A stretch of 64,000 bases of DNA, from positions 7,274-71,273 of the forward strand of contig JAFWZN010000049.1 in assembly GCA_017522345.1 (NCBI GenBank), given 5' to 3'. The translations under genes and the position numbers were made by a program. A model generated the notes under the pieces. That model made no database searches and had not been told where the DNA came from. It saw only the letters and a program-made list of their open reading frames with translations. This stretch comes from Clostridia bacterium (GTDB taxonomy: Bacteria > Bacillota > Clostridia > Christensenellales > Aristaeellaceae). Shown here in pieces: positions 6,300 to 41,969 of this stretch (positions are counted from its first letter, which is position 1; the number at the start of each line of letters is the position of its first letter).

Positions 6300-7889
6300 T
6301 CAGTCTGTGACTTCCACCATATCGCGTCCGAAGATTTCAAAGGTTCTGGCAAGGGCTTCTCCGCTGATACCCCTGGGAACGACCTCTTTTCCATCGTCGA
6401 TTTTCAAATTGACGGTCATTTTTTCGCCGAAGCTTTCCGAAAATGCGGATTCGAGCAGCTGCGGCTTTCTCTCCAGCGCCTGCATGTGAATGCGGGCGTT
6501 TTTGTCAAAGGATACGAAAACCACGTTTGCGTCGCGGCCTGCAAATTTTGCGGTTCTTAAAGAGCCCCTGATGGAGGGATTCTGGCTAAGAAGCTCGATG
6601 GCCTTGTCAAACATCGCCTCGTCCTGCGATTTGGGGCCTTTTATTTTGGTTGCTTCGGCCTGTTTAGCGGGCGCGGGCGCTGTCTTTCCGGCGGCGGGCG
6701 GAGGCGCGGGCTGCGCATTTTCTGCCACTACGCCGTTTTTGAGCTTGTTTTCCATGATTTCGATGCGCTCCATCAGCGCTTCCACGCTGTCGCCCTCCGC
6801 CGGGAAGCAGGCGCGCACGGCGCACATTTCAAGGATGGAGCGGGGATTCGATACCCATTTCATATCGCCCTCGGCGCGGATGAAAAGGTCCATGGACCGC
6901 ATCAGGCGCGTTTGTTCAAAGCGTTCGGTTTGCTGAATAAAGCGCTCGGCGTCCTCGGGCGTGATTTCGGTGAGATTTGCAAGGTCGCCCGGAACGAGCC
7001 GCGCCATAAGCAAGGTTCTCATATGCTGGGCGGCTTCCCTTGCAAACACCTGCGGGTCGCGGCCGTCGCGCATGGCGCGGTCGATCAGGGAAACGGCAAG
7101 GGCGGTATCGCTGTTGAGAATGGCGCCGACAAATTCAAACATGAATTCGCGGCCGGTCGTGCCCAGAACCTCGCGCACAAGCGGCGCGGAAACGGCGTCC
7201 GTGCAATAGCTTAAGCACATGTCAAGAAGGGAAAGCGCGTCGCGCATGCCGCCCTCGGAGGCTCTTGCGATTTCGTTCAGCGCTTCTTCTTCCGCACTTC
7301 GGTGAATGCCGTTTAGTACGACCTTCATGCGGTCGACAATCACGTTTTGCGGGATGCGTCTGAAATCATACCTTTGGCAGCGGGACAAAACCGTCGCGGG
7401 CAGCTTTTGCGGTTCGGTGGTTGCGAGGATAAAAACGGCGTGCGCCGGCGGCTCTTCCAACGTCTTTAAAAGCGCGTTGAATGCGCTTGTAGACAGCATG
7501 TGAACCTCGTCGATGATATAAACCTTGTATTTTCCGATGGTCGGAGGATAGGCGATTCTGTCTCTGAGCGCACGAACCTCGTCAACGCCGTTGTTGGATG
7601 CGGCGTCGATTTCCAGTACGTCCATATTGTTTTCGTTTTTTAGCTGAACGCACGCTTCGCACGCGCCGCACGGTTCGCCGTCTTCTGTATTCATGCAGTT
7701 GATGGCGCGGGAAAGCACCTTTGCCGTCGTCGTTTTGCCGGTTCCGCGGCTTCCTGAGAAAAGATAGGCATGCGCGACATGTCCCATCACGATCTGTCTT
7801 TTCAGGGTCTTGGTTACGGCTTCCTGTCCGCATACATCTGAAAATTTTTCGGGTCTCCACGCGCGGTACAGCGCCTGATAGCTGCTCAT
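6300..7889 (-). CDS. dnaX: DNA polymerase III subunit gamma/tau
   Basis: Walker A GSRGTGKTT, zinc module CGACEAC, the IIDEVHMLS box and SRCQRYDF. Confidence 0.95.
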   Translation of the reverse strand: MSSYQALYRAWRPEKFSDVCGQEAVTKTLKRQIVMGHVAHAYLFSGSRGTGKTTTAKVLSRAINCMNTEDGEPCGACEACVQLKNENNMDVLEIDAASNNGVDEVRALRDRIAYPPTIGKYKVYIIDEVHMLSTSAFNALLKTLEEPPAHAVFILATTEPQKLPATVLSRCQRYDFRRIPQNVIVDRMKVVLNGIHRSAEEEALNEIARASEGGMRDALSLLDMCLSYCTDAVSAPLVREVLGTTGREFMFEFVGAILNSDTALAVSLIDRAMRDGRDPQVFAREAAQHMRTLLMARLVPGDLANLTEITPEDAERFIQQTERFEQTRLMRSMDLFIRAEGDMKWVSNPRSILEMCAVRACFPAEGDSVEALMERIEIMENKLKNGVVAENAQPAPPPAAGKTAPAPAKQAEATKIKGPKSQDEAMFDKAIELLSQNPSIRGSLRTAKFAGRDANVVFVSFDKNARIHMQALERKPQLLESAFSESFGEKMTVNLKIDDGKEVVPRGISGEALARTFEIFGRDMVEVTD

Positions 7890-29494: not shown

Positions 29495-30646
29495 ATGAAA
29501 GCGATTATTAACGGCAGAATTATCACCCCCAACGGCACCATCGAAAACATGGCGCTTCTTTACGATGAGAAAATTCAGGGAATCGTTTCTCTCGATCAGA
29601 TCAATGACGCAGAAGTAATCGACGCGGAAGGCAAATACGTGCTTCCGGGTCTTGTAGATATGCACATTCACGGCTACCTCGGCGAGGACGCTTCCGATGG
29701 CGAGGAAGACGGCATCCGCAAAATGGCCAAGGGCATCGCAGCCAACGGCGTTACCAGCTGGCTGCCCACCACGATGACGGTTTCCTATGACGCGCTTGAA
29801 AAGGCCTTTGCCGCCATCAAGACCGTTATGGCAGAGACCAAGAAGGACGACTTTGACGGCGCCGAAATCATGGGCGTCAACGCCGAAGGTCCGTTCATCA
29901 ACGCCGCCAAGAAGGGCGCTCAGGCGGGCGAGCACATCCGCACCTGCGATCCCGAGTTCATTGATAAGTATTCCGACATCATCAAGGTGTTCACCGTTGC
30001 CCCCGAAGTCAAGGGCAACATGCGCGCCATCCGCGAAATCAAAAAGGCGCATCCCGAGATGCTGATCTCCATGGGCCACACCTCCGCCACCTTCGAGCAG
30101 GCTGAAAAGGCCGTTCGCGCAGGCGTTCGCCACGTAACCCACCTGTTCAATGCCCAGACGCCCCTTGCCCACAGAGATCCCGGCGTTGTCGGCTGCGCGC
30201 TTTGCGAATCCCGCGTTTCCGCCGAGCTGATTGCCGATATGTTCCACGTAAACAAGGCGCTTTTCAAGGTTGTCGCCGACGCCAAGAAGGATAAGCTCGT
30301 TCTGATTACCGACTGCACCCGCGCCGGCGGACTGACCGACGGCGAGTACACGCTGGGCGGTCAGCCCATCTTTGTTAAGGGCGTAGAGTGCCGTCTGGCG
30401 GACGGAACCATCGCCGGCAGCGTTCTTAAGCTCAACGAGGCTGTCCGCAATATGCATAACAGCTATCGCCGCCTGCCGCTTCACAAGGTTGTTAAGATGG
30501 CGTCCCTCAACCCTGCCAAGGCGATCGGCATTGACAAGACCAAGGGCTCCATCGAGGTTGGCAAGGATGCAGACTTCTGCTTTGCCGACGAGCAGTTTAA
30601 CATCAGCCGCACCATCCTTCGCGGCCGCACCATTTACGAAGCGTAA
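29495..30646 (+). CDS. nagA: N-acetylglucosamine-6-phosphate deacetylase
   Basis: VLPGLVDMHIHGY, HLFNAQ and an amidohydrolase fold pattern, 383 aa. Confidence 0.9.
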   Translation: MKAIINGRIITPNGTIENMALLYDEKIQGIVSLDQINDAEVIDAEGKYVLPGLVDMHIHGYLGEDASDGEEDGIRKMAKGIAANGVTSWLPTTMTVSYDALEKAFAAIKTVMAETKKDDFDGAEIMGVNAEGPFINAAKKGAQAGEHIRTCDPEFIDKYSDIIKVFTVAPEVKGNMRAIREIKKAHPEMLISMGHTSATFEQAEKAVRAGVRHVTHLFNAQTPLAHRDPGVVGCALCESRVSAELIADMFHVNKALFKVVADAKKDKLVLITDCTRAGGLTDGEYTLGGQPIFVKGVECRLADGTIAGSVLKLNEAVRNMHNSYRRLPLHKVVKMASLNPAKAIGIDKTKGSIEVGKDADFCFADEQFNISRTILRGRTIYEA

Positions 30647-30675
30647 TTTAAGCCGTTTATTGGAGGTTTTCGATT

Positions 30676-32049
30676 ATGGAACTTAAAATCAAAGCGCCCC
30701 TCGATCCTGGCTTTTACCCGATGGTTAAATTCGTCGACGAGTTTGACGCAGACGTTGCCAAAAGCGAAAAGCAGACCATCGCCGTAAGCGTTATCCGCAA
30801 TCAGGGCTACACCCACACCATCAAGATGGACGTTTTCAAAGACGGCATCGACGACGCGCGCAACTGCAAGGTTGTTGAACGCATCGTAAAGACCTTCCTT
30901 TGGGTATACGGCGGCTACAAAATCGTGATCGCCGGCTCCAAGGTGATTTATGAGCACATCAAAAAGTGCTATGCCGCCGACGGCGAGCGCGCCTTTGACA
31001 ACGACTTCATGGCCGGTGTTTACGAGCATCCCTTTGAGGTTGAGTTCGTTGCCTGCCCCAACTGCGCCCCCGAGACCAATGAGTCCGCAAGCCCCGTAGG
31101 CCGCCATCTGGACGGCTGCCGCATCGGCTTTGACGCAGGCGGCTCCGACGTGAAGGTTTCCGCGGTCATCGACGGCGAAAGCGTATATTCCGAAGAAATC
31201 GTCTGGCATCCCAAGACCCAGACCGATCCGAACTACCATTACAACGGAATCAGAAATGCCATGCTGAAGGCCGCCGAGAAGATGCCCCGCGTAGACGGCA
31301 TCGGCGTTTCCTCCGCAGGCGTTTACATCGACAACCGCGCGATGGTTGCCTCTCTTTTCATCAAGCTGTCTCCCGAAGACAAGGAAAAGTGCAAGAACAT
31401 CTATCTTGACGTTGCCAAGTCCATTGGCGACATGCCCATCGAAGTTGCCAACGACGGCGACGTTACCGCCCTTGCCGGCGCGATGGATTTAAACGACAAC
31501 CGCGTTTTAGGCATTGCCATGGGCACCAGCGAAGCGGGCGGCTATGTTGACGGAAACGGCAACATCACCGGCTGGCTTAACGAGCTCGCGTTCGTTCCCG
31601 TTGACGTGAACCCTGAAGCCATGGTCGACGAATGGTCCGGAGACGTCGGCTGCGGCGTTAAGTATTTCTCTCAGGATTCCGTCATCAAGCTTTGTCCCGC
31701 AGCGGGCATTGAGCTGGACGAGAGCCTGACGCTTGCCGAGAAGCTCAAGTACGTTCAGACCCTTCATGCAAACGGAGATTCCAGAACCAACGGCATTTAT
31801 GAAACCATCGGCGTATACTTCGGCTATCAGCTCGCCTACTATGCCAAGTTCTACGACATCGCCCACGTTCTCATCATGGGCCGCGTAACCTCCGGCACCG
31901 GCGGACAGATCCTGCTTGCCAAGGCAAAGGAAGTTCTTGAAGCCGAATATCCCGAGCTGGCAAAGAAAATGCAGCTCCACATCCCCGATGAAGCAAGCCG
32001 CCGCGTAGGTCAGTCTGTCGCCGCCGCGAGCCTGCCGCTGATCAAGTAA
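30676..32049 (+). CDS. ASKHA-fold sugar kinase (ROK-like) with ~150 aa N-terminal extension
   Basis: IGFDAGGSDVKVS (phosphate-1), ANDGDVTALAGA and GIAMGTSEAGGYV. The CxCGxxGC zinc motif of classic ROK kinases is not seen. Adjacent to nagA. Confidence 0.6.
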   Translation: MELKIKAPLDPGFYPMVKFVDEFDADVAKSEKQTIAVSVIRNQGYTHTIKMDVFKDGIDDARNCKVVERIVKTFLWVYGGYKIVIAGSKVIYEHIKKCYAADGERAFDNDFMAGVYEHPFEVEFVACPNCAPETNESASPVGRHLDGCRIGFDAGGSDVKVSAVIDGESVYSEEIVWHPKTQTDPNYHYNGIRNAMLKAAEKMPRVDGIGVSSAGVYIDNRAMVASLFIKLSPEDKEKCKNIYLDVAKSIGDMPIEVANDGDVTALAGAMDLNDNRVLGIAMGTSEAGGYVDGNGNITGWLNELAFVPVDVNPEAMVDEWSGDVGCGVKYFSQDSVIKLCPAAGIELDESLTLAEKLKYVQTLHANGDSRTNGIYETIGVYFGYQLAYYAKFYDIAHVLIMGRVTSGTGGQILLAKAKEVLEAEYPELAKKMQLHIPDEASRRVGQSVAAASLPLIK

Positions 32050-32074: not shown

Positions 32075-32115
32075 AAAGTGCGCAGAGTGAGGATCGCCTC
32101 ATTCTGCGCACTTTT
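32075..32115 (+). terminator. rho-independent terminator after the nagA-kinase pair
   Basis: aaagtgcgcaga ... tctgcgcacttt followed by a T-run. Confidence 0.85.
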
Positions 32116-32279: not shown

Positions 32280-33560
32280 CTATGCTTTTTTCTTTTTTCC
32301 TTTATGCTTCTTGGAGGGCGTTTCTTTGCGGGGGGAAGGGGGGGCCTGCTTGACAGCAGGTTCAGCGACGGGCTCCGGGATTGTCTCTATATCTGTAGGC
32401 GGCGCATCGCCTTTGCACGCGCTTTGCGAATCGGAAAACAGATTGTCAATGGCGCTGGGAATCCGGGCGTCCACCGCCTCGTCAATTAGGGTGTATACGA
32501 CCGACACGACCGGCACAAACAGCATCATGCCGGCAATGCCCATGAGGCTTCCGCCGATGGATACGGCAAACAGCGTAAGATACGCCGGAAGACCGACGGA
32601 TTCGCCGACCACGCGGGGGTAGATGATATTGCCTTCCACCTGCTGAACGACCAGAAACACGATAATAAACACAAGCGCGCTCTGGGGGGATTCAAGCAGT
32701 ATGATAATTGAACCGAAAGCCAAGGAAACAAAGGCGCCGACATAGGGAATGAGCGCGAAAACCATGGTGAGACTGCTGATGGACATGGCGTAAGGGAGAT
32801 CGAAAATCAGCATGCCGGCAAATAGTATAGCGGCCAGAATGAACGCTTCCAGACACTGCATGGAAAGAAAACGGCTGAAGGCGGAAACAAATAAGGAGCA
32901 GGTGCGGCTGATATAGGCTGCGACCTTTTTGGGAAGGAATGCAAACAGAATTCTGCGCGAGGATTTTGAAATGCGCTTTCGGTCAGCCAATATGTAAATG
33001 GCGAGCATAATGCACATAAGGGCTGAGGTCAGCGAGGAAAAGATGGAAACGGTGGTTGAGAAGGTCACATTCAACGTGACGTTTAGGATGTCGCGGATGT
33101 TGCCCTGAATCCATGCGCTGATTTTGTCAACCAGCGTCTGTATCGCAGCGGAATCAAGGCCGAACCGGGAGGTGAAATTGATAATTTCATCCCTGTTCTG
33201 ATTGACGCTTACGATCAGCTCGTCAATCGCTTCGACAAATTCCGGAACGATAAACATGACGATGCCAATAATGACCATGGGGGTCAGAATCAAAACCAGC
33301 GTCAGAGAGATGACGCCCCGTGTTTTTTCCGAGATCAGGTGCTTTTTGTCGATTCTTCTTAAAAGCTTTTCAATGCCGCGCAGCGGCACGTTTAAAATCA
33401 GCGCAAGCGCAAAGCCCAGCCCCATGGGACTTAAAAGCCCCCAGATTTTTTCCAGAAACCCGGCGATTGAATCAAGATTCATTAAGGCGGCAAACAGCAC
33501 GACGGCGAATATGATGGTAGACATCCAGACCTTTAACTGGCGGTTATCGGTTCGATTCAT
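32280..33560 (-). CDS. AI-2E (PerM/UPF0118) family transporter
   Basis: Polytopic, with LVVQQVEGNIIYPRVVGESVGLP and GGSLMGIAGMMLFVP motifs and a Lys-rich tail. Lies 12 nt downstream of the GRE gene. Confidence 0.85.
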   Translation of the reverse strand: MNRTDNRQLKVWMSTIIFAVVLFAALMNLDSIAGFLEKIWGLLSPMGLGFALALILNVPLRGIEKLLRRIDKKHLISEKTRGVISLTLVLILTPMVIIGIVMFIVPEFVEAIDELIVSVNQNRDEIINFTSRFGLDSAAIQTLVDKISAWIQGNIRDILNVTLNVTFSTTVSIFSSLTSALMCIMLAIYILADRKRISKSSRRILFAFLPKKVAAYISRTCSLFVSAFSRFLSMQCLEAFILAAILFAGMLIFDLPYAMSISSLTMVFALIPYVGAFVSLAFGSIIILLESPQSALVFIIVFLVVQQVEGNIIYPRVVGESVGLPAYLTLFAVSIGGSLMGIAGMMLFVPVVSVVYTLIDEAVDARIPSAIDNLFSDSQSACKGDAPPTDIETIPEPVAEPAVKQAPPSPRKETPSKKHKGKKKKA

Positions 33561-33572
33561 GACGGTTCTCCT

Positions 33573-35546
33573 TTACCTGTAGCTTGCGCGCATCAGAATC
33601 TGATCCTGATACGCAGCGTCCAATTGTACGAAATGACCGCTCCAGCCCCATACGCGCACGATGAGATTTTTGTGATTCTCCGGATGAATGCGCGCGTCTT
33701 TGAGAGTTTCGATATTGACGGCGTTCAGCTGAAGCTGATGTCCGCCCAGAGCGATGAAGGTTTTAACAAGCATGGCGACTTTTTCCATGCCTTCTTTGTT
33801 TCGCATGACGCTGTCATGAATTTCAAGCGTCAGAGGGCCGCCGTTTATGACGCGCGACAGCCCCGGACGCGCCATATGCCTTAGAACGGTGAGAGGACCC
33901 GCGTCCCGGACAAGAAGCGAGGGAGAAAAGTTGGCTGCGAGGCGATCGCCGGGCAGATGTCCGTTGGACATGGAGGCGATTTCGTCCGCGTGCCAGAGAT
34001 AGTACATTGCGCTGCCCGTTCCGGGACGGAAAATGCCGCCGAATTCATTTCTGAGCGGGGAGAGCGCGTCGGCAAACGCGTCTAAGAGAAAATCTGCAAG
34101 CTCAATGCATTCGTCGTCCCGTCCAAGCTTGGGCGCAGATTCCCTTAACATGCGAAGAAGCGCGGGGTTTGATTGGAAATGATCCGAAAGAGCGTCTGTC
34201 AGCGCGTCGCGCGTCACGCTTTTTTCATCAAAAAGGTATTTTTTGACGGCAGCCAGCTGATCGACGGCATCGGAAAAGCCGGTTCCATGAACGCCGTAGT
34301 TTCTGTATTTCGCGCCGGAGGATATGTCTTTAACGTAATCGCTCATCAGAACGCTTTGATACGGCGCGGGCTCCATCCATAGGGAATCGACTTCGCGTCT
34401 GACACCTTGGGCTGCAGCCTGCAGACGTTTTTTTACGGTATCGAGTACGGTTTCGAAGGAATCCGCGGTTTGAATGGAGGAAAGAATGCTTTCGTGAACC
34501 TCTTTTGCAAGGGAGATTGCAGCGATGTTTGGGATATCCATACCCTTTCCGGGGATGATGAATTCCCAGCAGGCGGCGACGGTGTAATCGCGGGCGTCCT
34601 CAAGGTCGTAGCCCATTTTGACGAGGGCGGGGATGACGATATCGTCGTTTGCATACTGCGGAAAGCCGAGTCCCTGCTTGGTTAGCTCGGTCGCGGCAAT
34701 GTAGAGCTCATTGGGCGTATCTTTATTTACGCGCAGATTGATTTTGGGATCGATTCTTCTGTTGTTGAGCGAGGCTTTTAAGCATAGGTACGTCAGCTCG
34801 TTGACCGCGTTTTTTCCGTCCCGCGTCACGCCGCCCAGCATCAGGCTCTGTCCGTTGTCGCCCTGCTGCATGCCGGTATACAGGTCGCTGTCGCGGTTGA
34901 AGGACAGGAAGAGCTCTTCGGTATATAAAAGCGCTTCCGCCTCGGTGATAAAGCCGCTTTCGACGTCTTTTTTGAAATACGGGTACATGTATTGGTCGAA
35001 TCTGCCGAGCGTATTGTGGTAAACATTGCTCGCCCAGAGCGCGAAATGGAGAATGCGAAGCGCTTTCAGCGCGTCAAGGTAATGCTCTGCGCCGTAGCGG
35101 ATGGCGTTTGAGAGCGCTTCGTCCTCGTAGCGGTCGGCGTAAGCGATGACGGCGTCGATGGTGAGGTCTCGCGCTGGATGACCGGTTTTTCTTTTGAGAA
35201 GACCGCCGGAAATTACGCCCGCCCAGTCGCTTGACAGGTTGCACACGCGCCCCTGCTCGTGGACGTGACGCCCCGCCTGCAGGCGCTCCTTTTCGCCTTC
35301 CTGATAGATGTCCGGAAAAGACGGGACGGTGCGCCAGCCGTAGATATGTTCATCGGGCATACGTATGATTTTTTCATTTTCAAGAAAGCGTTTTAAGCGA
35401 AGCGCTGCGCGCATTTCAAGCGAAAGATCGTCCGATTGGATTTCCTTTTCGATTTTTTCAGCGGTTTTGCTGTCGAGCGGCGCGCGCAGCGATTTGTTTT
35501 TTCCCAGAATCAGATTGCTGCGCTGATGATCCATCCAGCTGGTCAA
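33573..35546 (-). CDS. glycyl radical enzyme, PFL2/dehydratase-like, unusually short (657 aa)
   Basis: C-terminal LIVRVWGWSGHFVQL (glycyl radical loop context) and catalytic Cys loop VAACWEFIIPG. Overlaps the activase stop by 4 nt. Confidence 0.8.
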   Translation of the reverse strand: MTSWMDHQRSNLILGKNKSLRAPLDSKTAEKIEKEIQSDDLSLEMRAALRLKRFLENEKIIRMPDEHIYGWRTVPSFPDIYQEGEKERLQAGRHVHEQGRVCNLSSDWAGVISGGLLKRKTGHPARDLTIDAVIAYADRYEDEALSNAIRYGAEHYLDALKALRILHFALWASNVYHNTLGRFDQYMYPYFKKDVESGFITEAEALLYTEELFLSFNRDSDLYTGMQQGDNGQSLMLGGVTRDGKNAVNELTYLCLKASLNNRRIDPKINLRVNKDTPNELYIAATELTKQGLGFPQYANDDIVIPALVKMGYDLEDARDYTVAACWEFIIPGKGMDIPNIAAISLAKEVHESILSSIQTADSFETVLDTVKKRLQAAAQGVRREVDSLWMEPAPYQSVLMSDYVKDISSGAKYRNYGVHGTGFSDAVDQLAAVKKYLFDEKSVTRDALTDALSDHFQSNPALLRMLRESAPKLGRDDECIELADFLLDAFADALSPLRNEFGGIFRPGTGSAMYYLWHADEIASMSNGHLPGDRLAANFSPSLLVRDAGPLTVLRHMARPGLSRVINGGPLTLEIHDSVMRNKEGMEKVAMLVKTFIALGGHQLQLNAVNIETLKDARIHPENHKNLIVRVWGWSGHFVQLDAAYQDQILMRASYR

Positions 35547-36394
35547 AGCACGATCACCTCCATGTTTTCACGTTCAAACGGAGCTTTTATGATGTTGACT
35601 TCTGCGTTTTCATTGAAAGACGGCTTGTATTTTTTTCCGGCGCTTTCATATTTCGCGCCTGCGGCTTTGTGATAGGGAAGGAGCGCGACGCGGTGAAGCT
35701 GCTTTGCGCCCTTTATAAGCTGCGCCGTCGCATTCATATTATGAAGCGTGTCGTTCACGCCCGGAATCAGGGGTATATTGATTTGAAAGGGAACGCCGCT
35801 ATTTTTGAGAATTTCAAGATTTTTGAGAATTTTATCGTTTTTCACGCCGGTATAGTGTAAATGCGCTTCGGGATCAATGACCTTCAGGTCCATAATCACG
35901 TAATCCAGTTCGGAAATAACGCGCTTGAAAACGTCCTGTTCCGCATAGCCGCTGGTTTCAATCGCGGCGTGCATGGGGCGAAGGAGACGGCGAATTTCGA
36001 GCAGGAATTCGCTCTGCATAAGCGGTTCTCCGCCGCTGAAGGTAACCCCGCCCATGTTCATTTTAAGAAGATCCGCGTTTTTATAAACCCTTTCTGCGAC
36101 GTCCTCGGCCCTAACGTCGAGCCCGGCGATAGAGATAAGGCCCTGCCTGCATGCGTATAGGCACTGCATGCAGCCGGTGCATTTTCCTTTGCCGCCCGTG
36201 GGGCAAACGGCATTGCACGCGCCGCAATGCGCGCACAGGCGCACCTTTGTAATGCGAGTCGGCGCAAAATCAAGCCCTTCCGGGTTATGACACCACATGC
36301 AGCGAAGCGGGCAGCCTTTAAAAAAGATTACCGTGCGGATACCGGGGCCGTCGTACACCGCGAATTCTTCAATATCGAATATTTTACCAAGCAC
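35543..36394 (-). CDS. glycyl-radical enzyme activating protein (radical SAM)
   Basis: CPLRCMWCHNPE (CxxxCxxC), a ferredoxin-like insert CAHCGACNAVCP...CTGCMQCLYAC and GGVTFSGGEP. GTG start after GGGAGA. Confidence 0.9.
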   Translation of the reverse strand: MLGKIFDIEEFAVYDGPGIRTVIFFKGCPLRCMWCHNPEGLDFAPTRITKVRLCAHCGACNAVCPTGGKGKCTGCMQCLYACRQGLISIAGLDVRAEDVAERVYKNADLLKMNMGGVTFSGGEPLMQSEFLLEIRRLLRPMHAAIETSGYAEQDVFKRVISELDYVIMDLKVIDPEAHLHYTGVKNDKILKNLEILKNSGVPFQINIPLIPGVNDTLHNMNATAQLIKGAKQLHRVALLPYHKAAGAKYESAGKKYKPSFNENAEVNIIKAPFERENMEVIVL

Positions 36395-36413: not shown

Positions 36414-36456
36414 GAAAAGCCGAACGAGGCTGCGTTTGCGCAGTCGTTCGGCTTTC
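36414..36456 (-). terminator. rho-independent terminator after murA
   Basis: On the minus strand: gaaagccgaacga ... tcgttcggcttttc. It ends only a few nt before the activase RBS. Confidence 0.7.
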
Positions 36457-36466
36457 ATTTCACGTC

Positions 36467-37750
36467 TTATACATTCGGGAACATGTTTTCGTCAACGAGT
36501 CTGCGGCGAACGTCCGCGCCCAGCAAACGCAGCTTTTCATCGATGCGCTCATAGCCGCGCAGGATGTAATGAATTCCGCGGATGCTGCTCTCGCCTTCTG
36601 CAATCAGGGAGGCGACGATCATGGCCGCGCCGGCGCGAAGGTCGGTAGCGGTGATGGAGGAGGCGGTCAGGCGTTTTACGCCGTGTATGCGCGCGATGCG
36701 GTTATCGACGTCGATATCCGCGCCCATGCGCTTTAATTCCTCCACATATTTGAACCGGCTTTCAAATACCGTTTCGTTGACGGAGCTTTCCCCCGCGACG
36801 GTTGCGAGCATCGCCGTCATGGGCTGCTGAAGATCGGTGGGGAACCCGGGATAAACCTGTGTTTTCACGCTGATCGGGCGAAGAATGCCTTCTGAGCGCA
36901 CGCGGATCAGATCGTCCGAATCGGTGACGTGTACGCCCATTTCAAGCAGCTTTGCCGTCAAGGACTCCATATGGGTTGGAATCGCGCCGTGAATGGTGAC
37001 GTCGCCGTGCGTTGCGGCGGCGGCAATCATGAGCGTGCCCGTTTCGATTTGGTCGGGGATGACGGCGTAGTTGGAGCCGTGCAGCGGGCGTCCGCCGCGA
37101 ATTCGGATCACGTCGGTGCCTGCGCCCTTGACCCATGCGCCCATAGAGGACAGGAAGTTCGCCGTGTCAACGATGTGAGGCTCGCGGGCGGCGTTGTGAA
37201 TGGTGGTATTGCCCTCGGCGCACACGGCCGCAAGCATGGTATTGATGGTTGCGCCGACGGATGGAAAGTCCAAAAAGATTTCGGTTCCCTTGAAATTATC
37301 GGTGACGCGCGCGGAAATGACGTCGCCTGCAAGATCAACGTCCACGCCAAGGGAAGTAAGGCCCTTGATCGTGTAGTCGATCGGGCGCTTACCGATATTG
37401 CAGCCGCCGGGCATAGGCACGTTGGCCGAGCCCAGTCTTCCCAGAAGCACAGGAACCAGATAATAAGACGCACGCATCTTCGAAACCAGATCAACCGGCG
37501 GGTTATCCTTCGTGATGCCGCGCGGGTCAATGTACATCACGCCGTCTTTGAATTCAACGTCGGCGCCAAGCCATTTGAGCATATCGCGCAGGCAGTATAC
37601 GTCGTCTATATCGGGCAGATTTTCTATAGTGGAAGGAGAGTCGGCCAAAACAGCGGCGGGAATGATCGCAACAGCCGCGTTTTTACCGCCGCTGACGCTG
37701 ACTTCTCCCCGAAGCCTTGTGCCGCCCTGAATACACAATGTCTCAATCAT
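36467..37750 (-). CDS. murA: UDP-N-acetylglucosamine 1-carboxyvinyltransferase
   Basis: ISGGKNAAVAIIPA and the catalytic loop GGCNIGKRPID. 427 aa with a full-length MurA pattern. Confidence 0.95.
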   Translation of the reverse strand: MIETLCIQGGTRLRGEVSVSGGKNAAVAIIPAAVLADSPSTIENLPDIDDVYCLRDMLKWLGADVEFKDGVMYIDPRGITKDNPPVDLVSKMRASYYLVPVLLGRLGSANVPMPGGCNIGKRPIDYTIKGLTSLGVDVDLAGDVISARVTDNFKGTEIFLDFPSVGATINTMLAAVCAEGNTTIHNAAREPHIVDTANFLSSMGAWVKGAGTDVIRIRGGRPLHGSNYAVIPDQIETGTLMIAAAATHGDVTIHGAIPTHMESLTAKLLEMGVHVTDSDDLIRVRSEGILRPISVKTQVYPGFPTDLQQPMTAMLATVAGESSVNETVFESRFKYVEELKRMGADIDVDNRIARIHGVKRLTASSITATDLRAGAAMIVASLIAEGESSIRGIHYILRGYERIDEKLRLLGADVRRRLVDENMFPNV

Positions 37751-38182: not shown

Positions 38183-38971
38183 TTACTTGCCGTATTGCAT
38201 GACTGCGTCCACGGCGTCCATAAAGGCGGAGCGCATCCCTGCTTTTTCAAGCGCCTGAACGCCTCTTATGGTCGTTCCCAGGGGGGAGCATACGCCGTCC
38301 TTGATTTCGCCGGGATGAAGACCGGTTTCAAGCTGCATTTTTGCCGTTCCCAAGGTCATCTGCGCGGCCAGCGCGTAGGCGGTCTTTCGGGGAATGCCGT
38401 ATTTGACGCCCGCGTCGGACAGCGCTTCAAGAACCATCGCGATAAACGCGGGGCCGCAGCCGGCAACAGCTGCGCCGGCAGGCATCAGGCGGGAGGGGAG
38501 CGTAAACACGCTTCCGATTTTTGAGAACATATCAAATACCCACGCATGCTCGCTTTCTGTCAGGTTGTGCTTTTCTTCAAACATCAAAACGCCTTCGCCC
38601 ACCGAGGAGGGGGTGTTGGGCATGATGTAAAGGTGGCGCACGGAGGGGGGCAAAAGTTTTTCATATCTGTCAAAATCGTAGCCGGAAATGACGGACAGCA
38701 TGATTTTGTCCTTTAAACAATTGCCGCTTTCCTCTAAAACGGCTTCAATATGATAGGGCTTTACGGCAAAGAGGATGGCGTCTGTGTCCTTGGCCATCTG
38801 CTCGAGCGATTCTGAGATGTGAAAGCCCAATTCTTTAGAAAACGCACGAAGCTTTTCGGGGTGATGACCGCACACATAGACGTTGTCCGCGTCAATTGCG
38901 CCAAATTCGATCAAGCCGCGAATGAGCGCTCCTCCCATATTGCCCGCGCCCAAAAATCCTAATTTTTTCAT
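38183..38971 (-). CDS. proC: pyrroline-5-carboxylate reductase
   Basis: LGFLGAGNMGGALIRG (NADP site) and the C-terminal SPLGTTIRGV motif. Confidence 0.92.
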   Translation of the reverse strand: MKKLGFLGAGNMGGALIRGLIEFGAIDADNVYVCGHHPEKLRAFSKELGFHISESLEQMAKDTDAILFAVKPYHIEAVLEESGNCLKDKIMLSVISGYDFDRYEKLLPPSVRHLYIMPNTPSSVGEGVLMFEEKHNLTESEHAWVFDMFSKIGSVFTLPSRLMPAGAAVAGCGPAFIAMVLEALSDAGVKYGIPRKTAYALAAQMTLGTAKMQLETGLHPGEIKDGVCSPLGTTIRGVQALEKAGMRSAFMDAVDAVMQYGK

Positions 38972-39004: not shown

Positions 39005-40237
39005 TTATAGAATGTGCCGAAAGTTGATTCTGAATTCCGTGCCGCCGCTTTCGGTTGATTCGACGTCGATGGAAGCCTGATGCGCGTCGGCAACGCTTCT
39101 TGCGATGGAAAGACCGAGCCCGTGCCCCTCCTGAGCGCGGGTTTGGGCGTTTTTCAAGCGTCTAAAGCGGTCAAAAATATACGCGATTTCGTCTTTTGAT
39201 ATGTAGGTAGACGCATTATAGATAGAAAGCACGATTTTTCTGACCTGCTTTTCAAGTCGGATGCGCACCAGCCCCCCGTTTTTTTCATACTTGAACGCGT
39301 TTTCGATGATCGCTGTGACCATCTGCGAAAGCGCTTTTTCGTTTCCGCGGATTTCGACGCCGTCCTGAATGTCGGTTTCAAGCGTAATGCCTTTGTCGAA
39401 GGCCACGGCTTCAAACTGAAGCGTTTGACCAAAAACGAGGGCGGAGAGATTTACGTTTGTGAAATCCGTGCGGCGCACGTTCAGATCGCTTTGCGTAAGC
39501 ACCAGCATATCGCGAATCAAGTCGTGCATGCCGCCGGCTTCTTCCTCCGTTGCTGTCAGCCAATGGTTGGCTTCCTCGTCGTTTTTCATGGAGCCGCTTC
39601 GTAAAATTGCGATGTTGGCCAGAATGACGGTCAAGGGCGTTTTAAGCGCGTGGGATGCGTCGGCGATAAATTGTTTTTGCCGCTCCCACGCGTTTTCCGT
39701 GGTTAACAGCGCAAGCTTTGCAACCGGTATGCTGACGGCAATTACGAGCGCAACGGCGCAAGCCCCAATCAATGTGAGAAGCTTTATAAGCTTGATCATT
39801 TCCGCGCGAACCGGGCGCGTGCTGGCGATTCCGATGGAAACCGAGCCGTCCGGGTTTGGAATCTTTGCAAAATGCATATCGTCCGCAAGGTCGCCCGTCT
39901 GATTCTCGCTTGCCAGCGCGGCGGTTACCTTTTCTTTGAGCGCCGCTTGTTCAAGATGAGCGCCGCGCATCTCAATATGAATAATCTCGCCTTTTTGGGG
40001 GTCCGCCACTACAACGATATGCGCCGTCGGGGCGAACATGTGCCCGGGCGCGGGCGCGTCCAATGAAACGGGCGTTTCTTCGATGGAATTCGTCGCGGCT
40101 TTTATGAGATACGCTTCAAGCTCGTCAATATGAGCGTCATAGGTGAAAAAGCAGATGAGCAAAAAAACCAGTATCAGCACGATGCCGACATACAGGGTAT
40201 TGGTTACGATAAACTTTGTGCGGAGGCGTTTAAGCAC
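39005..40237 (-). CDS. two-component sensor histidine kinase
   Basis: Two TM segments, H-box FIADASHALKTPLT and G-box GHGLGLSIA. Confidence 0.9.
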   Translation of the reverse strand: MLKRLRTKFIVTNTLYVGIVLILVFLLICFFTYDAHIDELEAYLIKAATNSIEETPVSLDAPAPGHMFAPTAHIVVVADPQKGEIIHIEMRGAHLEQAALKEKVTAALASENQTGDLADDMHFAKIPNPDGSVSIGIASTRPVRAEMIKLIKLLTLIGACAVALVIAVSIPVAKLALLTTENAWERQKQFIADASHALKTPLTVILANIAILRSGSMKNDEEANHWLTATEEEAGGMHDLIRDMLVLTQSDLNVRRTDFTNVNLSALVFGQTLQFEAVAFDKGITLETDIQDGVEIRGNEKALSQMVTAIIENAFKYEKNGGLVRIRLEKQVRKIVLSIYNASTYISKDEIAYIFDRFRRLKNAQTRAQEGHGLGLSIARSVADAHQASIDVESTESGGTEFRINFRHIL

Positions 40238-40240
40238 GGT

Positions 40241-40918
40241 TTATCCCTCCTCCTGAGAGAGCCGATAGCCGATTTTCTGAAGATTTTTGATGGTGACCGA
40301 GGAATTCAAAAATCGAAGCTTCCTTCGTAAGAAGGAGATGTAAGCTTCCAGATTATTGTCCTCTACGCCGGACTCCGCGCCCCATACGTTTAATATGAGG
40401 GTTTCTTTTAAAACGGCGGATTTGGGGTTGTTCATCAATAGGCGCATGACCTCAAATTCCTTCGGGCTCAGATGGACGGAAGCGTTTTCCTTTTTAAGGT
40501 CGCAGCCGGTCAGATCGAGCGTTATGTCGGCGTAGGCGAGCTCGTCTAAAACGACTTCGCCGCTTCGCCTGGTCAGCGCATGAATGCGCGCAATCAATTC
40601 CTCCGTCGCAAAGGGCTTTGTCATATAATCGTCCGCTCCGGCATTTAAGCCGTTGACCTTATCGGGAACGGAGTCTTTTGCCGTCAGCATGAGAACGGGG
40701 GTTGATACTTTCTTCGAGCGGATGGTCTGAACGACTTCAAACCCGTCAATGTCCGGCAGCATAATATCCAGAAGAATAATGTCGTATGGAGCGCACAGCG
40801 CGTATTCCACGCCGCTTTTTCCGTCGTATACGACGTCCGTAACAAAGGCTTGATCTTCAAATATGCGCTTGAGCGCGGCGGCTAAGCGTTTCTCGTCTTC
40901 AACAATTAAAGCGCGCAT
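40241..40918 (-). CDS. OmpR-family response regulator
   Basis: MRALIVEDE...DIILLDIMLPDIDG...LTAKD and a winged-helix C-terminus ending GYRL. Start set at the ATG at 40918 after GGAAAGGAGG; the 389 aa ORF is an artefactual extension. Confidence 0.92.
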   Translation of the reverse strand: MRALIVEDEKRLAAALKRIFEDQAFVTDVVYDGKSGVEYALCAPYDIILLDIMLPDIDGFEVVQTIRSKKVSTPVLMLTAKDSVPDKVNGLNAGADDYMTKPFATEELIARIHALTRRSGEVVLDELAYADITLDLTGCDLKKENASVHLSPKEFEVMRLLMNNPKSAVLKETLILNVWGAESGVEDNNLEAYISFLRRKLRFLNSSVTIKNLQKIGYRLSQEEG

Positions 40919-41090
40919 GCATATCGCGCCTCCTTTCCCACCTATATCATAGCACAAGATTACAGAATTTACAAATGGTGACGAACGCAAATTTGATTTT
41001 TTTGTGAAGAAACGGAAAGATGCGTCGCTTTTTAAGAGAATTTTCAGCTTGACGGGTATGATAACAAGGTAGAGATGCATTATTGGCCGA

Positions 41091-41969
41091 ATGGAGGCTT
41101 TTTTCGTGAAAAAAGAGAGAATTGCGGTTATTACCGACACCGCCTCGGATCTTGACAAGGAATATCTGAGCGCGCACGAGGATTTGTTTGTTCTGCCTTT
41201 GAGACTGAATGTGGGGGACAAAAGCCTTATCGACGGCGCGGACATCACGACGGAGGAGGTGCTTGCGCGCATGGAAGCGGGCGAGACGTTCAAAACGTCC
41301 CTGCCGAGTCCCGAGGACGCGGAAAGGATTTTGGCCGAAATCAAAGCGCGCGGCATCAAAAAGGTTGTTTCGGTGCACATTGCCTCCGGCCTCTCCGGCA
41401 CCCTTGCCATGATGCGCCTGATGGCCGATCAGCACAAGGACGAGCTTGAGATTAAATTTTTTGACACCAAAATCCTCTCCATGAGCGAGGGCTATATGGT
41501 CAAAAACGCGGTCGAGCTCGTCGAAAGCGGTTATCCGTATGAAACGATCATCGAAAAAATGACGGCGCTTCGAAACGATGTGGACGGATATTTCTACATT
41601 CCGACCCTTAAATACTTAGCTGCGGGCGGACGTATCGGAAGCGTCGCCAAATATCTTGGAAATCTCATGAACATCAAGCCCCTTATCGGCTGCGAGCCGG
41701 AAGAAGGCAGATATTATCCCAGAAAAATCTGCATCGGCGCAAAGCGCACCATGCTCGCGGCGCGGGACGAGTGCAGGGCGTTTGTGGAAAACAGAATAGC
41801 GGAAGTCACGGTTCTGCACGCCGGTGCAAAGGAAGAGGCTGAAAAGCTGGCTGCGTCCATCAAGGCGGTTTGCCAGAATGTGAAAACGAGCATCAGCGAG
41901 CTTACGCCCTCCCTGTCCGTACATGTAGGACGCGGCATGATGGCGGTCTGCACCAGAAGATTTTCGTAA
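41091..41969 (+). CDS. DegV family fatty-acid-binding protein
   Basis: IAVITDTASDL, KTSLPSP, SGLSGT and GGRIG motifs. Confidence 0.88.
   Translation: MEAFFVKKERIAVITDTASDLDKEYLSAHEDLFVLPLRLNVGDKSLIDGADITTEEVLARMEAGETFKTSLPSPEDAERILAEIKARGIKKVVSVHIASGLSGTLAMMRLMADQHKDELEIKFFDTKILSMSEGYMVKNAVELVESGYPYETIIEKMTALRNDVDGYFYIPTLKYLAAGGRIGSVAKYLGNLMNIKPLIGCEPEEGRYYPRKICIGAKRTMLAARDECRAFVENRIAEVTVLHAGAKEEAEKLAASIKAVCQNVKTSISELTPSLSVHVGRGMMAVCTRRFS

Follow-up and report, generated by a model that had tools for sequence, protein, structure and literature searches.

A compact glycyl radical enzyme and its activase in a Clostridia bacterium, and their links to sugar genes

We describe a glycyl radical enzyme (GRE) and its activating enzyme (activase), encoded side by side in a Clostridia bacterium (GenBank assembly GCA_017522345.1, contig JAFWZN010000049.1). 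The stretch of DNA analysed, 64,000 nucleotides (nt) from positions 7,274 to 71,273 of that contig, is referred to as the window. The GRE is compact and carries tryptophan in both of its signature loops, and it is probably an active enzyme that performs radical C-O cleavage on a sugar or sugar derivative released by glycosidases. It is compared throughout with the B12-independent glycerol dehydratase (GD) of Clostridium butyricum (DhaB1, with its activase DhaB2; structures 1R8W and 1R9D), its best match in both sequence and fold.

Locus layout and the predicted enzyme

The genes and the catalytic positions of the GRE are as follows (aa, amino acids; SAM, S-adenosylmethionine).

35543-36394, minus strand: activase, a radical SAM protein of 283 aa (open reading frame with GTG start; Pfam; NCBIfam).
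33573-35546, minus strand: compact GRE of 657 aa, W-type, with RVWGWS, AACWEF and Asn103 (open reading frame, Pfam, alignment, AlphaFold2, tree).
35238-35240, minus strand: codon of Asn103, at the position of the general-acid His164 of GD (profile alignment).
34560-34577, minus strand: thiyl (Cys) loop A324-A-C326-W327-E328-F329; C326 corresponds to GD Cys433 and E328 to GD Glu435 in the alignment.
33639-33656, minus strand: glycyl-radical loop R631-V-W633-G634-W635-S636, aligned with RVAGYS of 1R8W; the Gly634 codon lies at 33645-33647.
32280-33560, minus strand: AI-2E family membrane protein of 426 aa (open reading frame; PF01594).

The three open reading frames are tightly packed on one strand, and the initial annotation of the window had their positions and spacing right. 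The activase range shares 4 nt (cTTGAcc) with that of the GRE, and the 12-nt gap between the GRE stop and the ATG of the AI-2E gene holds an AGGAG ribosome-binding site. The GRE frame opens with TTG and has an in-frame ATG at codon 5; the start call is supported because the 4-nt overlap recurs in many homologous loci. The GRE has a dedicated, translationally coupled activase, and the two genes adjoin in 73 of 80 family loci. These family loci are the best 80 of 594 stretches (GTDB contigs, one genome per species) that encode a relative of the GRE; neighbouring genes were tallied over 77 loci, and residue conservation was scored in 78 homologues.

The activase carries the CX3CX2C motif (C28, C32, C35) and two CX2CX2CX3C auxiliary-cluster motifs (C54-C64 and C72-C82), and its Pfam domains are Radical_SAM and Fer4_12. 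It passes the generic GRE-activase model TIGR02494 (261.6 bits, cut-off 174.35) and falls below the cut-off of every substrate-specific NCBIfam activase equivalog. A short GRE of the YjjI/YjjW type was considered and rejected: the activase scores 145 on TIGR04041 against a cut-off of 250, and no YjjI model matches the GRE.

The GRE itself is recognised by the Pfam families PFL-like (PF02901; 236.5 bits, 8.9e-70, cut-off 24.3) and Gly_radical (PF01228; 56.5 bits, 4.6e-15, cut-off 22.2). Its translation contains YTVAACWEFIIPG, with Cys326-Trp327-Glu328, and NLIVRVWGWSGHFVQLD, with Gly634; the motifs VAACWEF and LIVRVWGWSGHFVQL, from which a GRE had originally been proposed, are both found in it. 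Among solved structures searched with HMMER, 1R8W ranks first (7e-60, or 2e-110 with the family profile as query), followed by PflD, 1,2-propanediol dehydratase (PD), HypD and CutC. Both the HMMER and the profile alignments pair Cys326, Glu328 and Gly634 with GD Cys433, Glu435 and the glycine of RVAGYS, as expected from the initial reading of the two loops.

An AlphaFold2 model built from a 48-sequence family alignment has a predicted local distance difference test (pLDDT) score of 92 and a predicted template-modelling score (pTM) of 0.92. Foldseek matches this model to GD, PD, PflD, HypD and CutC at a probability of 1.00 and a query-normalised template-modelling (TM) score of 0.83-0.86. The top match is 1R8W (TM 0.86), and PflD (8YJO) and PD (5I2A) are among the best of the others; sequence identity to the solved enzymes in these structural alignments is 19-23%. 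The GRE is thus predicted to have the ten-stranded alpha/beta barrel of the GRE fold. The short length noted at the outset is real, since the solved GREs of the pyruvate formate-lyase 2 (PFL2) type that it matches are all at least 764 aa long. Compared with GD it is 130 residues shorter, and approximately 105 of these are lost from the N-terminal region (GD 1-281 corresponds to GRE 1-176 in the profile alignment).

Differences from GD are concentrated around the active site. In the profile alignment, GD His164 is replaced by Asn103, Val434 by Trp327, His281-Ser282 by Tyr176-His177, Asp447 by Asn340, and Tyr640 by Gly511. Residues 281, 282, 447 and 640 are taken as pocket positions of GD, following the GD structure papers. 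The segment around Asn103 reads v-s-N-i-s-s-D-Y in the family, versus V-G-H164-V-S-V-D-Y in GD, and PD and both PflD chains have His at this position. In GD, Glu435 takes the proton from the substrate hydroxyl, and His164 supplies one to the hydroxyl that leaves (PMC13450708). The Cys-x-Glu arrangement is kept in all characterised C-O, C-N and C-S eliminases and in the isomerases, with the Glu acting on a substrate hydroxyl (PMC13450708). This arrangement is present in the window GRE (C326-W327-E328), and the residue aligned with the general-acid His of GD and PD is Asn103. Based on these alignment differences and on the residue roles in the cited review, it appears that the radical relay and the Glu are retained and that the pocket is otherwise rebuilt, its acid catalyst included.

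The activase-GRE pair is intact and under purifying selection. The GRE keeps all 84 invariant columns of the 48-sequence family alignment, including Gly634, Cys326 and Glu328. The ratio of nonsynonymous to synonymous substitution rates (dN/dS), measured against the orthologous locus L092 (GRE 80% identical), is 0.12 for the GRE, 0.14 for the activase, 0.15 for the AI-2E gene and 0.045 for murA, the values being approximate because dS is near saturation.

The compact W-type family

A word-indexed search with the GRE returned thousands of matches. The top 120 are all 635-675 aa long and at least 62% identical, and the named entries among them are annotated as 'pyruvate formate-lyase' only. The best 80 family loci come from Clostridia, Bacteroidales, Spirochaetes, Verrucomicrobia and Planctomycetes, and their cultured carriers include Hungatella hathewayi DSM 13479, Clostridium symbiosum, Eisenbergiella tayi, Acetatifactor aquisgranensis, Ructibacterium gallinarum and Bianquea renquensis. 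The compact clade, with members of ~640-700 aa, spans hundreds of anaerobe species of several phyla in gut and rumen.

Residues C326, W327 and E328 are conserved in 97-100% of the homologues, and W633, G634 and W635 in 96-99%; the catalytic C326 and the radical G634 each reach 99-100%. The Trp seen in both loops by the initial annotation is a family signature and not noise, because it is at least 96% conserved. Invariant residues of the 48-sequence alignment also include N103, H177, Q227, G229-D230-N231-G232-Q233-S234, N340 and G511.

An exhaustive profile search of 1.84 billion representatives yielded ~25 clusters at 50% identity that combine RVWGWS with AACWEF, and sister compact clades of 660-745 aa mostly combine RVWGFS with SACWEP. 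In a tree of 89 full-length representatives, built with FastTree only, the RVWGWS clade has 100% local support and a long stem (0.55), and it sits within a W-G-[WF] superclade, apart from the classical RVAGYS group. The tree and the signature residues place the window GRE in a large W-type clade that is uncharacterised. Clustering with a GRE of known substrate, or a misaligned radical Gly or catalytic Cys, would have overturned the initial proposal of an unusual enzyme; neither was found. On TIGR01774 (the PFL2-3 / glycerol dehydratase subfamily), classical representatives pass at 746-910 bits, whereas two sister-clade representatives fail.

The signature residues change together. Where Trp precedes the radical Gly, Trp also follows the catalytic Cys (50 of 61 representatives) and Asn occupies the GD-His164 position (48 of 61); Ala, Ser or Thr before the radical Gly goes with Val or Ile after the Cys and with His at the His164 site. 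The median length is 689 aa for the Trp type versus 790 aa for the Ala type. The compact build, together with the co-varying Trp, Trp and Asn at the radical site, poses a clear question for enzymology.

The window genome encodes further GREs, 24-25% identical to the one in the window. One of them, on contig C26, is a pyruvate formate-lyase (PFL). Two others are short and divergent (C15:14823-16940 and C110:18159-20168), with open frames of 706 and 670 codons and the glycine loops RIGGYS and RIGGFA, and they fall in another group of the tree. The C15 gene has an activase directly downstream.

Sugar-linked neighbourhoods and the proposed chemistry

Genes of sugar metabolism recur around the family. 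Within two genes of the GRE-activase pair, the regulators are of the LacI type at 13 of the 77 loci, of the AraC type at 12, and of a GntR-type sugar-regulator class at 8. Over the same distance there is an MFS sugar porter at 12 loci, a DUF1080 / 3-keto-disaccharide-hydrolase-like gene at 9, a GH127-like gene at 6, a GH36 / raffinose-synthase-like gene at 6 and an aldose 1-epimerase gene at 4. ABC sugar systems, GH78, GH35, GH2 and GH28-like glycosidases, FGGY kinase and HAD phosphatases also occur near family loci.

The GH127-like protein is the likely partner among these neighbours. In the closest informative relative (locus L001, 63% identity), the order is LacI regulator, activase, GRE, GH127-like protein and an aldehyde-dehydrogenase-like protein. 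The genome of the window (G000) carries its own copy on another contig (C29:55543-57225), 66% identical to the L001 copy and 66-81% identical to the GRE-adjacent copies in L001, G003 and G020; no signal peptide was found in it. The initial annotation had seen no known pathway partners and no microcompartment. The first statement holds for the window but fails genome-wide, since this putative glycosidase co-occurs with the GRE from another contig. The second stands: no bacterial microcompartment (BMC) shell gene (PF00936) was found in the whole 2.87-Mb genome, and control genomes do match.

Co-occurrence of the two genes is one-sided. Among 41 relatives, the GRE is present in 11 and the GH127-like subfamily in 8, all 8 GRE-positive (Fisher p = 1.7e-6, a value that overstates independence, the genomes being partly related). 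Both genes occur in five genomes of the genus, and five others have neither. Of the eight relatives with both, six have them far apart or on separate contigs. An even sample of 301 genomes of the class has the GRE in 23 and the GH127-like subfamily in 4, again all GRE-positive; in all, 11 of 11 genomes with the subfamily also have the GRE. Elsewhere the genes are physically joined: G020, L001, L019 and L029 have LacI-GH127-like-GRE-activase operons, some of them including CUT1-type ABC genes, a divergently oriented version occurs in G003, and in G020 the GH127-like and GRE open reading frames overlap. The GH127-like subfamily depends on the GRE in one direction only; it is one feeder among several and not a universal partner, since most GRE-positive genomes are without it and carry different glycosidases near the pair. 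This strict dependence offers a concrete entry point to the substrate.

The GH127-like protein matches the Pfam GH127 catalytic and middle domains weakly (88 bits). Its nearest known relatives are the GH127/GH146 beta-L-arabinofuranosidases (HypBA1 and BtGH146; 3WKW and 6EX6); it matches GH146 6EX6 at 2.7e-20, with the E-x-C and C-C motifs aligned and kept. GH127/GH146 enzymes use a zinc-coordinated Cys nucleophile (PMC10728902). In contrast to these enzymes, the partner, a putative glycosidase with weak similarity to them, forms a distinct subfamily limited to genomes with the compact GRE. The window genome encodes five GH127-type genes in all, of which two match strongly. A search for an AraA-type L-arabinose isomerase gave no match in this genome and only a borderline one in the genus, in G006 (E 4.2e-5, 24.1 bits); most GRE-negative relatives are also without AraA.

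On contig C29 (47268-57225, corresponding to L099:268-10226 on the minus strand), a gap of 303 nt separates the GH127-like gene from seven downstream genes in the same orientation. These encode an Ldh_2-family dehydrogenase, a KDPG/KHG aldolase, an aldo/keto reductase, a glycerate-kinase-like protein (DUF4147/MOFRL), an enolase-like protein, an aldehyde dehydrogenase and a PfkB kinase. Together they resemble a deoxy-keto sugar-acid pathway that could take up a GRE product, a link set aside here because in nine other genomes the GH127-like gene has none of them as a conserved neighbour.

By homology with characterised GREs, the reaction would proceed via the following steps. The activase would reductively cleave SAM and take a hydrogen atom from Gly634, and the stored glycyl radical would generate a thiyl radical on Cys326. 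The thiyl radical would then take hydrogen from a hydroxyl-bearing carbon of the substrate, with Glu328 of the Cys-x-Glu loop hydrogen-bonding or deprotonating that hydroxyl. The resulting ketyl-type radical would expel the neighbouring C-O substituent, either by 1,2-elimination or by ring-opening isomerisation, and the product radical would regain hydrogen from Cys326. The predicted pocket differs from that of the dehydratases in its invariant Asn in place of His and in three Trp packed around the Gly and Cys loops, and the invariant QQGDNGQS segment would line the active site. The substrate is most probably a sugar or sugar-derived polyol freed in the cell by glycosidases, and in this lineage the glycosidase would be the GH127-like (beta-L-arabinofuranosidase-type) enzyme encoded on the other contig.

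Several points weigh against this interpretation. The nature of the substrate is read from gene context alone, and a recognisable sugar gene within two genes of the pair is missing in about half of the 77 loci, including that of the window. The GH127-like subfamily is missing in 19 of the 23 GRE-positive genomes of the class and in 3 of the 11 GRE-positive relatives, and the relatedness of the genomes tempers its co-occurrence with the GRE. The general-acid His of the diol dehydratases is missing, and the leaving-group chemistry may differ from that of a simple dehydration. At the level of expression, the promoter/terminator scan gave no clear promoter for the activase-GRE pair, and the locus was found in no RNA run searched, its matches lying solely in gut and ruminant DNA metagenomes.

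The loci with no sugar gene beside the pair, the many GRE-positive genomes without the GH127-like subfamily and the variety of neighbouring glycosidases (GH127-like, GH36-like, DUF1080, GH78, GH35, GH2) would all fit an active enzyme with a non-carbohydrate substrate, namely a small hydroxylated metabolite, whose links to sugar genes reflect a shared habitat or regulon. We regard this as unlikely. A shared habitat or regulon would have to account for a GH127-like subfamily confined to GRE-positive genomes even where the two genes are on separate contigs, for overlapping reading frames in G020, and for tight spacing of the pair with sugar porters, LacI regulators and CUT1-type ABC systems.

The reading as a sugar-directed enzyme can be taken further, though with a rather slim chance of being right. 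W-type GREs might act directly on a free, unphosphorylated sugar and cleave a C-O bond in it by radical chemistry, be it through dehydration, de-alkoxylation or ring opening; such a reaction would be new to the superfamily. L-Arabinofuranose released by cytoplasmic GH127-like enzymes would be one candidate, with the Trp, Trp and Asn as the structural adaptation. If true, these anaerobes would have a way to use a plant sugar without an isomerase.

The AI-2E neighbour, the cassette and known enzymes

Features flanking the three genes are as follows.

36467-37750, minus strand: murA (UDP-GlcNAc 1-carboxyvinyltransferase), a housekeeping backbone gene 5' of the activase-GRE pair (NCBIfam NF009470, 562.6 versus a cut-off of 552).
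36416-36455, minus strand: terminator-like hairpin 3' of murA, AAAGCCGAACG...CGTTCGGCTTT followed by TTTTC (read by eye).
32075-32114, no strand assigned: predicted inverted repeat AAAGTGCGCAGA...TCTGCGCACTTT where the AI-2E and ROK-like genes converge (read by eye).
38183-38971: proC, two genes upstream.

The murA hairpin leaves only ~20 nt before the activase start and is also found 3' of murA in L092 and in genomes where the pair is missing. The promoter/terminator scan detected no terminator between the GRE and AI-2E genes, which are likely co-transcribed in this organism, and the inverted repeat is likely a bidirectional terminator that closes the unit.

The AI-2E protein matches AI-2E_transport (PF01594) at 149 bits (2.4e-43, cut-off 34.3) and reaches no NCBIfam equivalog. 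The initial annotation took this co-transcribed transporter as a hint to an imported small molecule. That the AI-2E protein is a dedicated importer or exporter of the GRE substrate or product, in a functional three-gene operon, is very unlikely. The 12-nt gap, with its ribosome-binding site and no terminator, would suit such an operon, as would the order murA-activase-GRE-AI-2E in relatives with 72-81% GRE identity. However, this order is kept solely in relatives of the same genus. It is absent in relatives with 56-63% GRE identity, and no homologue of the AI-2E protein lies within 6 kb at any of 80 other family loci. Neither conservation across the family nor joint loss or gain of the two genes was found.

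In G001, G009 and G005, genomes of the same genus without the GRE, murA is followed directly, ~140 nt away, by an intact AI-2E orthologue, and the backbone histidine kinase-proC-murA-AI-2E is conserved in GRE-less genomes; MurA is 93-96% identical in G001 and G009. Two of these GRE-less sister genomes are only 75-80% complete, and their empty sites are contiguous sequence. The empty site of G009 (C510, locus L097) keeps ATATGGAGAAAAATACGATG, with one mismatch from the ribosome-binding site and ATG of the activase of L092, and the activase ATG now opens a three-codon reading frame (M-Q-R-stop). It also keeps GCTGCAGATAA, as compared with GCTACAGATAA at the GRE end of L092; the final ~12 nt of the GRE thus survive at this empty site, just upstream of the ribosome-binding site of the AI-2E gene. 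These remnants of the activase start and of the GRE end indicate that the pair was deleted there and that the AI-2E gene was kept, a clean case of cassette loss in nature. Presence of the pair alternates at close range: at 93-96% MurA identity to the window, L092 has it and G001 and G009 do not, and at 80% MurA identity G006 has it and G005 does not.

Because the empty site holds the activase start and the last bases of the GRE, the activase-GRE pair is a dispensable two-gene cassette that occupies the murA-AI-2E spacer. The adjacency of the AI-2E gene appears historical and not functional, that of a physical neighbour and not of a conserved partner. The transporter clue is thus a red herring, and any substrate screen should be redirected.

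The closeness of 1R8W, PflD 8YJO and PD 5I2A as sequence and fold matches, the Cys-x-Glu motif and the nearby proC raise the question of whether the GRE is a divergent orthologue of an enzyme of known substrate, such as glycerol or 1,2-propanediol dehydratase, hydroxyproline dehydratase, CutC or PflD/YbiW. This is highly improbable. On NCBIfam equivalogs the GRE scores 228 bits for HypD, 226 for PRK09983 (PflD-type), 200 for HpfG, 195 for HpsG, 180 for CutC, 159 for indoleacetate decarboxylase, 149 for 4-hydroxyphenylacetate decarboxylase and 33 for PFL, and it fails all of their cut-offs (994-1150 bits). On TIGR01774 it reaches 256 bits against a cut-off of 678.2, aligned to profile positions 271-784 only. 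Scores of 149-228 bits against curated cut-offs of 1000-1150 refute orthology, and the low identity, the altered pocket positions (His164, His281/Ser282, Asp447, Tyr640) and the position outside the classical group in the tree agree with this. As the initial annotation held, no known substrate can be assigned to the GRE; it belongs to no curated family with a known substrate.

Each of the nearest characterised enzymes shares some features with the window GRE. It shares with GD the barrel, the radical Gly and the Cys-x-Glu loop, as well as the segment ARFDQYMYPY; in both, the neighbouring activase has two auxiliary clusters. Unlike GD, its loops read RVWGWS and AACWEF in place of RVAGYS and IGCVEP, it is shorter, it fails TIGR01774 and has Asn for His164, and no 1,3-propanediol pathway genes accompany it. 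PflD and YbiW (8YJO, 8ID0, 8ID7) are isomerases of 1,5-anhydromannitol and 1,5-anhydroglucitol 6-phosphate, and PflD is the second-best sequence match. They are the sole characterised GREs that act on carbohydrates; they keep Cys-x-Glu and cleave a ring C-O bond beside the hydroxyl-bearing radical (PMC13450708). In contrast to the window GRE, they are 765-826 aa long, with RVAGYS and GCVE loops and His at the 164-equivalent position, and on PRK09983 the window GRE scores 226 versus 1109. They act on phosphorylated substrates; the compact family, in contrast, has porters, ABC importers and glycosidases as neighbours and not a phosphotransferase system or kinases.

PD of Roseburia inulinivorans (5I2A and 5I2G) shares the eliminase fold and Cys-x-Glu with the window GRE and acts in a sugar-derived metabolism (fucose and rhamnose to propanediol). 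However, it is 843 aa long, is associated with a microcompartment and has His166, and the window genome is without BMC shell genes. HypD (trans-4-hydroxy-L-proline dehydratase, 6VXC) is of the eliminase type and common in gut Clostridia, and proC lies near the window GRE; on the HypD model NF043068, the window GRE scores 228 versus 1100, and proC belongs to the backbone regardless of the GRE. As a clue to hydroxyproline, proC was rejected: it is present in the GRE-less backbone too and absent from 80 other family loci.

That the GRE is a decaying or non-catalytic relic in a housekeeping spacer, on its way to loss in sister species, is scarcely tenable: the cassette is lost in close relatives and has no recognised promoter of its own, but the frame is open with every family-invariant residue in place, dN/dS is low for both genes (0.12 and 0.14), the structural model is confident (pLDDT 92) and the Cys motifs of the activase are intact.

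A review of June 2026 counts six C-O eliminases, CutC, three C-S lyases, three isomerases, decarboxylases, X-succinate synthases and formate lyases among the GREs (PMC13450708). The same review states that whole clades lack validation, and no eliminase or isomerase described in it corresponds to the compact W-type family. A literature search found no paper joining 'glycyl radical' with AI-2E or with GH127/DUF1680, and no paper on a compact sugar-linked GRE. New here are the evidence from empty sites and a deletion scar, the finding that the signature residues vary together and the phyletic dependence of the GH127-like subfamily on the GRE. Past assignments of GRE clades have exposed unsuspected anaerobic pathways of the gut, for example those from choline to trimethylamine and those of hydroxyproline, isethionate and anhydro-hexitols.

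Two neighbouring modules of the window complete the picture. On the plus strand at 29495-32049, a NagA-like amidohydrolase gene (383 aa) is followed by a gene for a 457-aa protein, and the pair converges on the AI-2E gene. The 457-aa protein has a sub-threshold ROK-family match (19.3 bits versus a cut-off of 22.9) and no NCBIfam match; together the two genes may form an amino-sugar module with a kinase-like protein. On the minus strand at 40241-41410, a 389-aa reading frame is over-extended, its response-regulator domain beginning at an internal Met (MRALIVEDEKRL...). This response regulator and the histidine kinase at 39005-40237 form a two-component pair of the conserved backbone.

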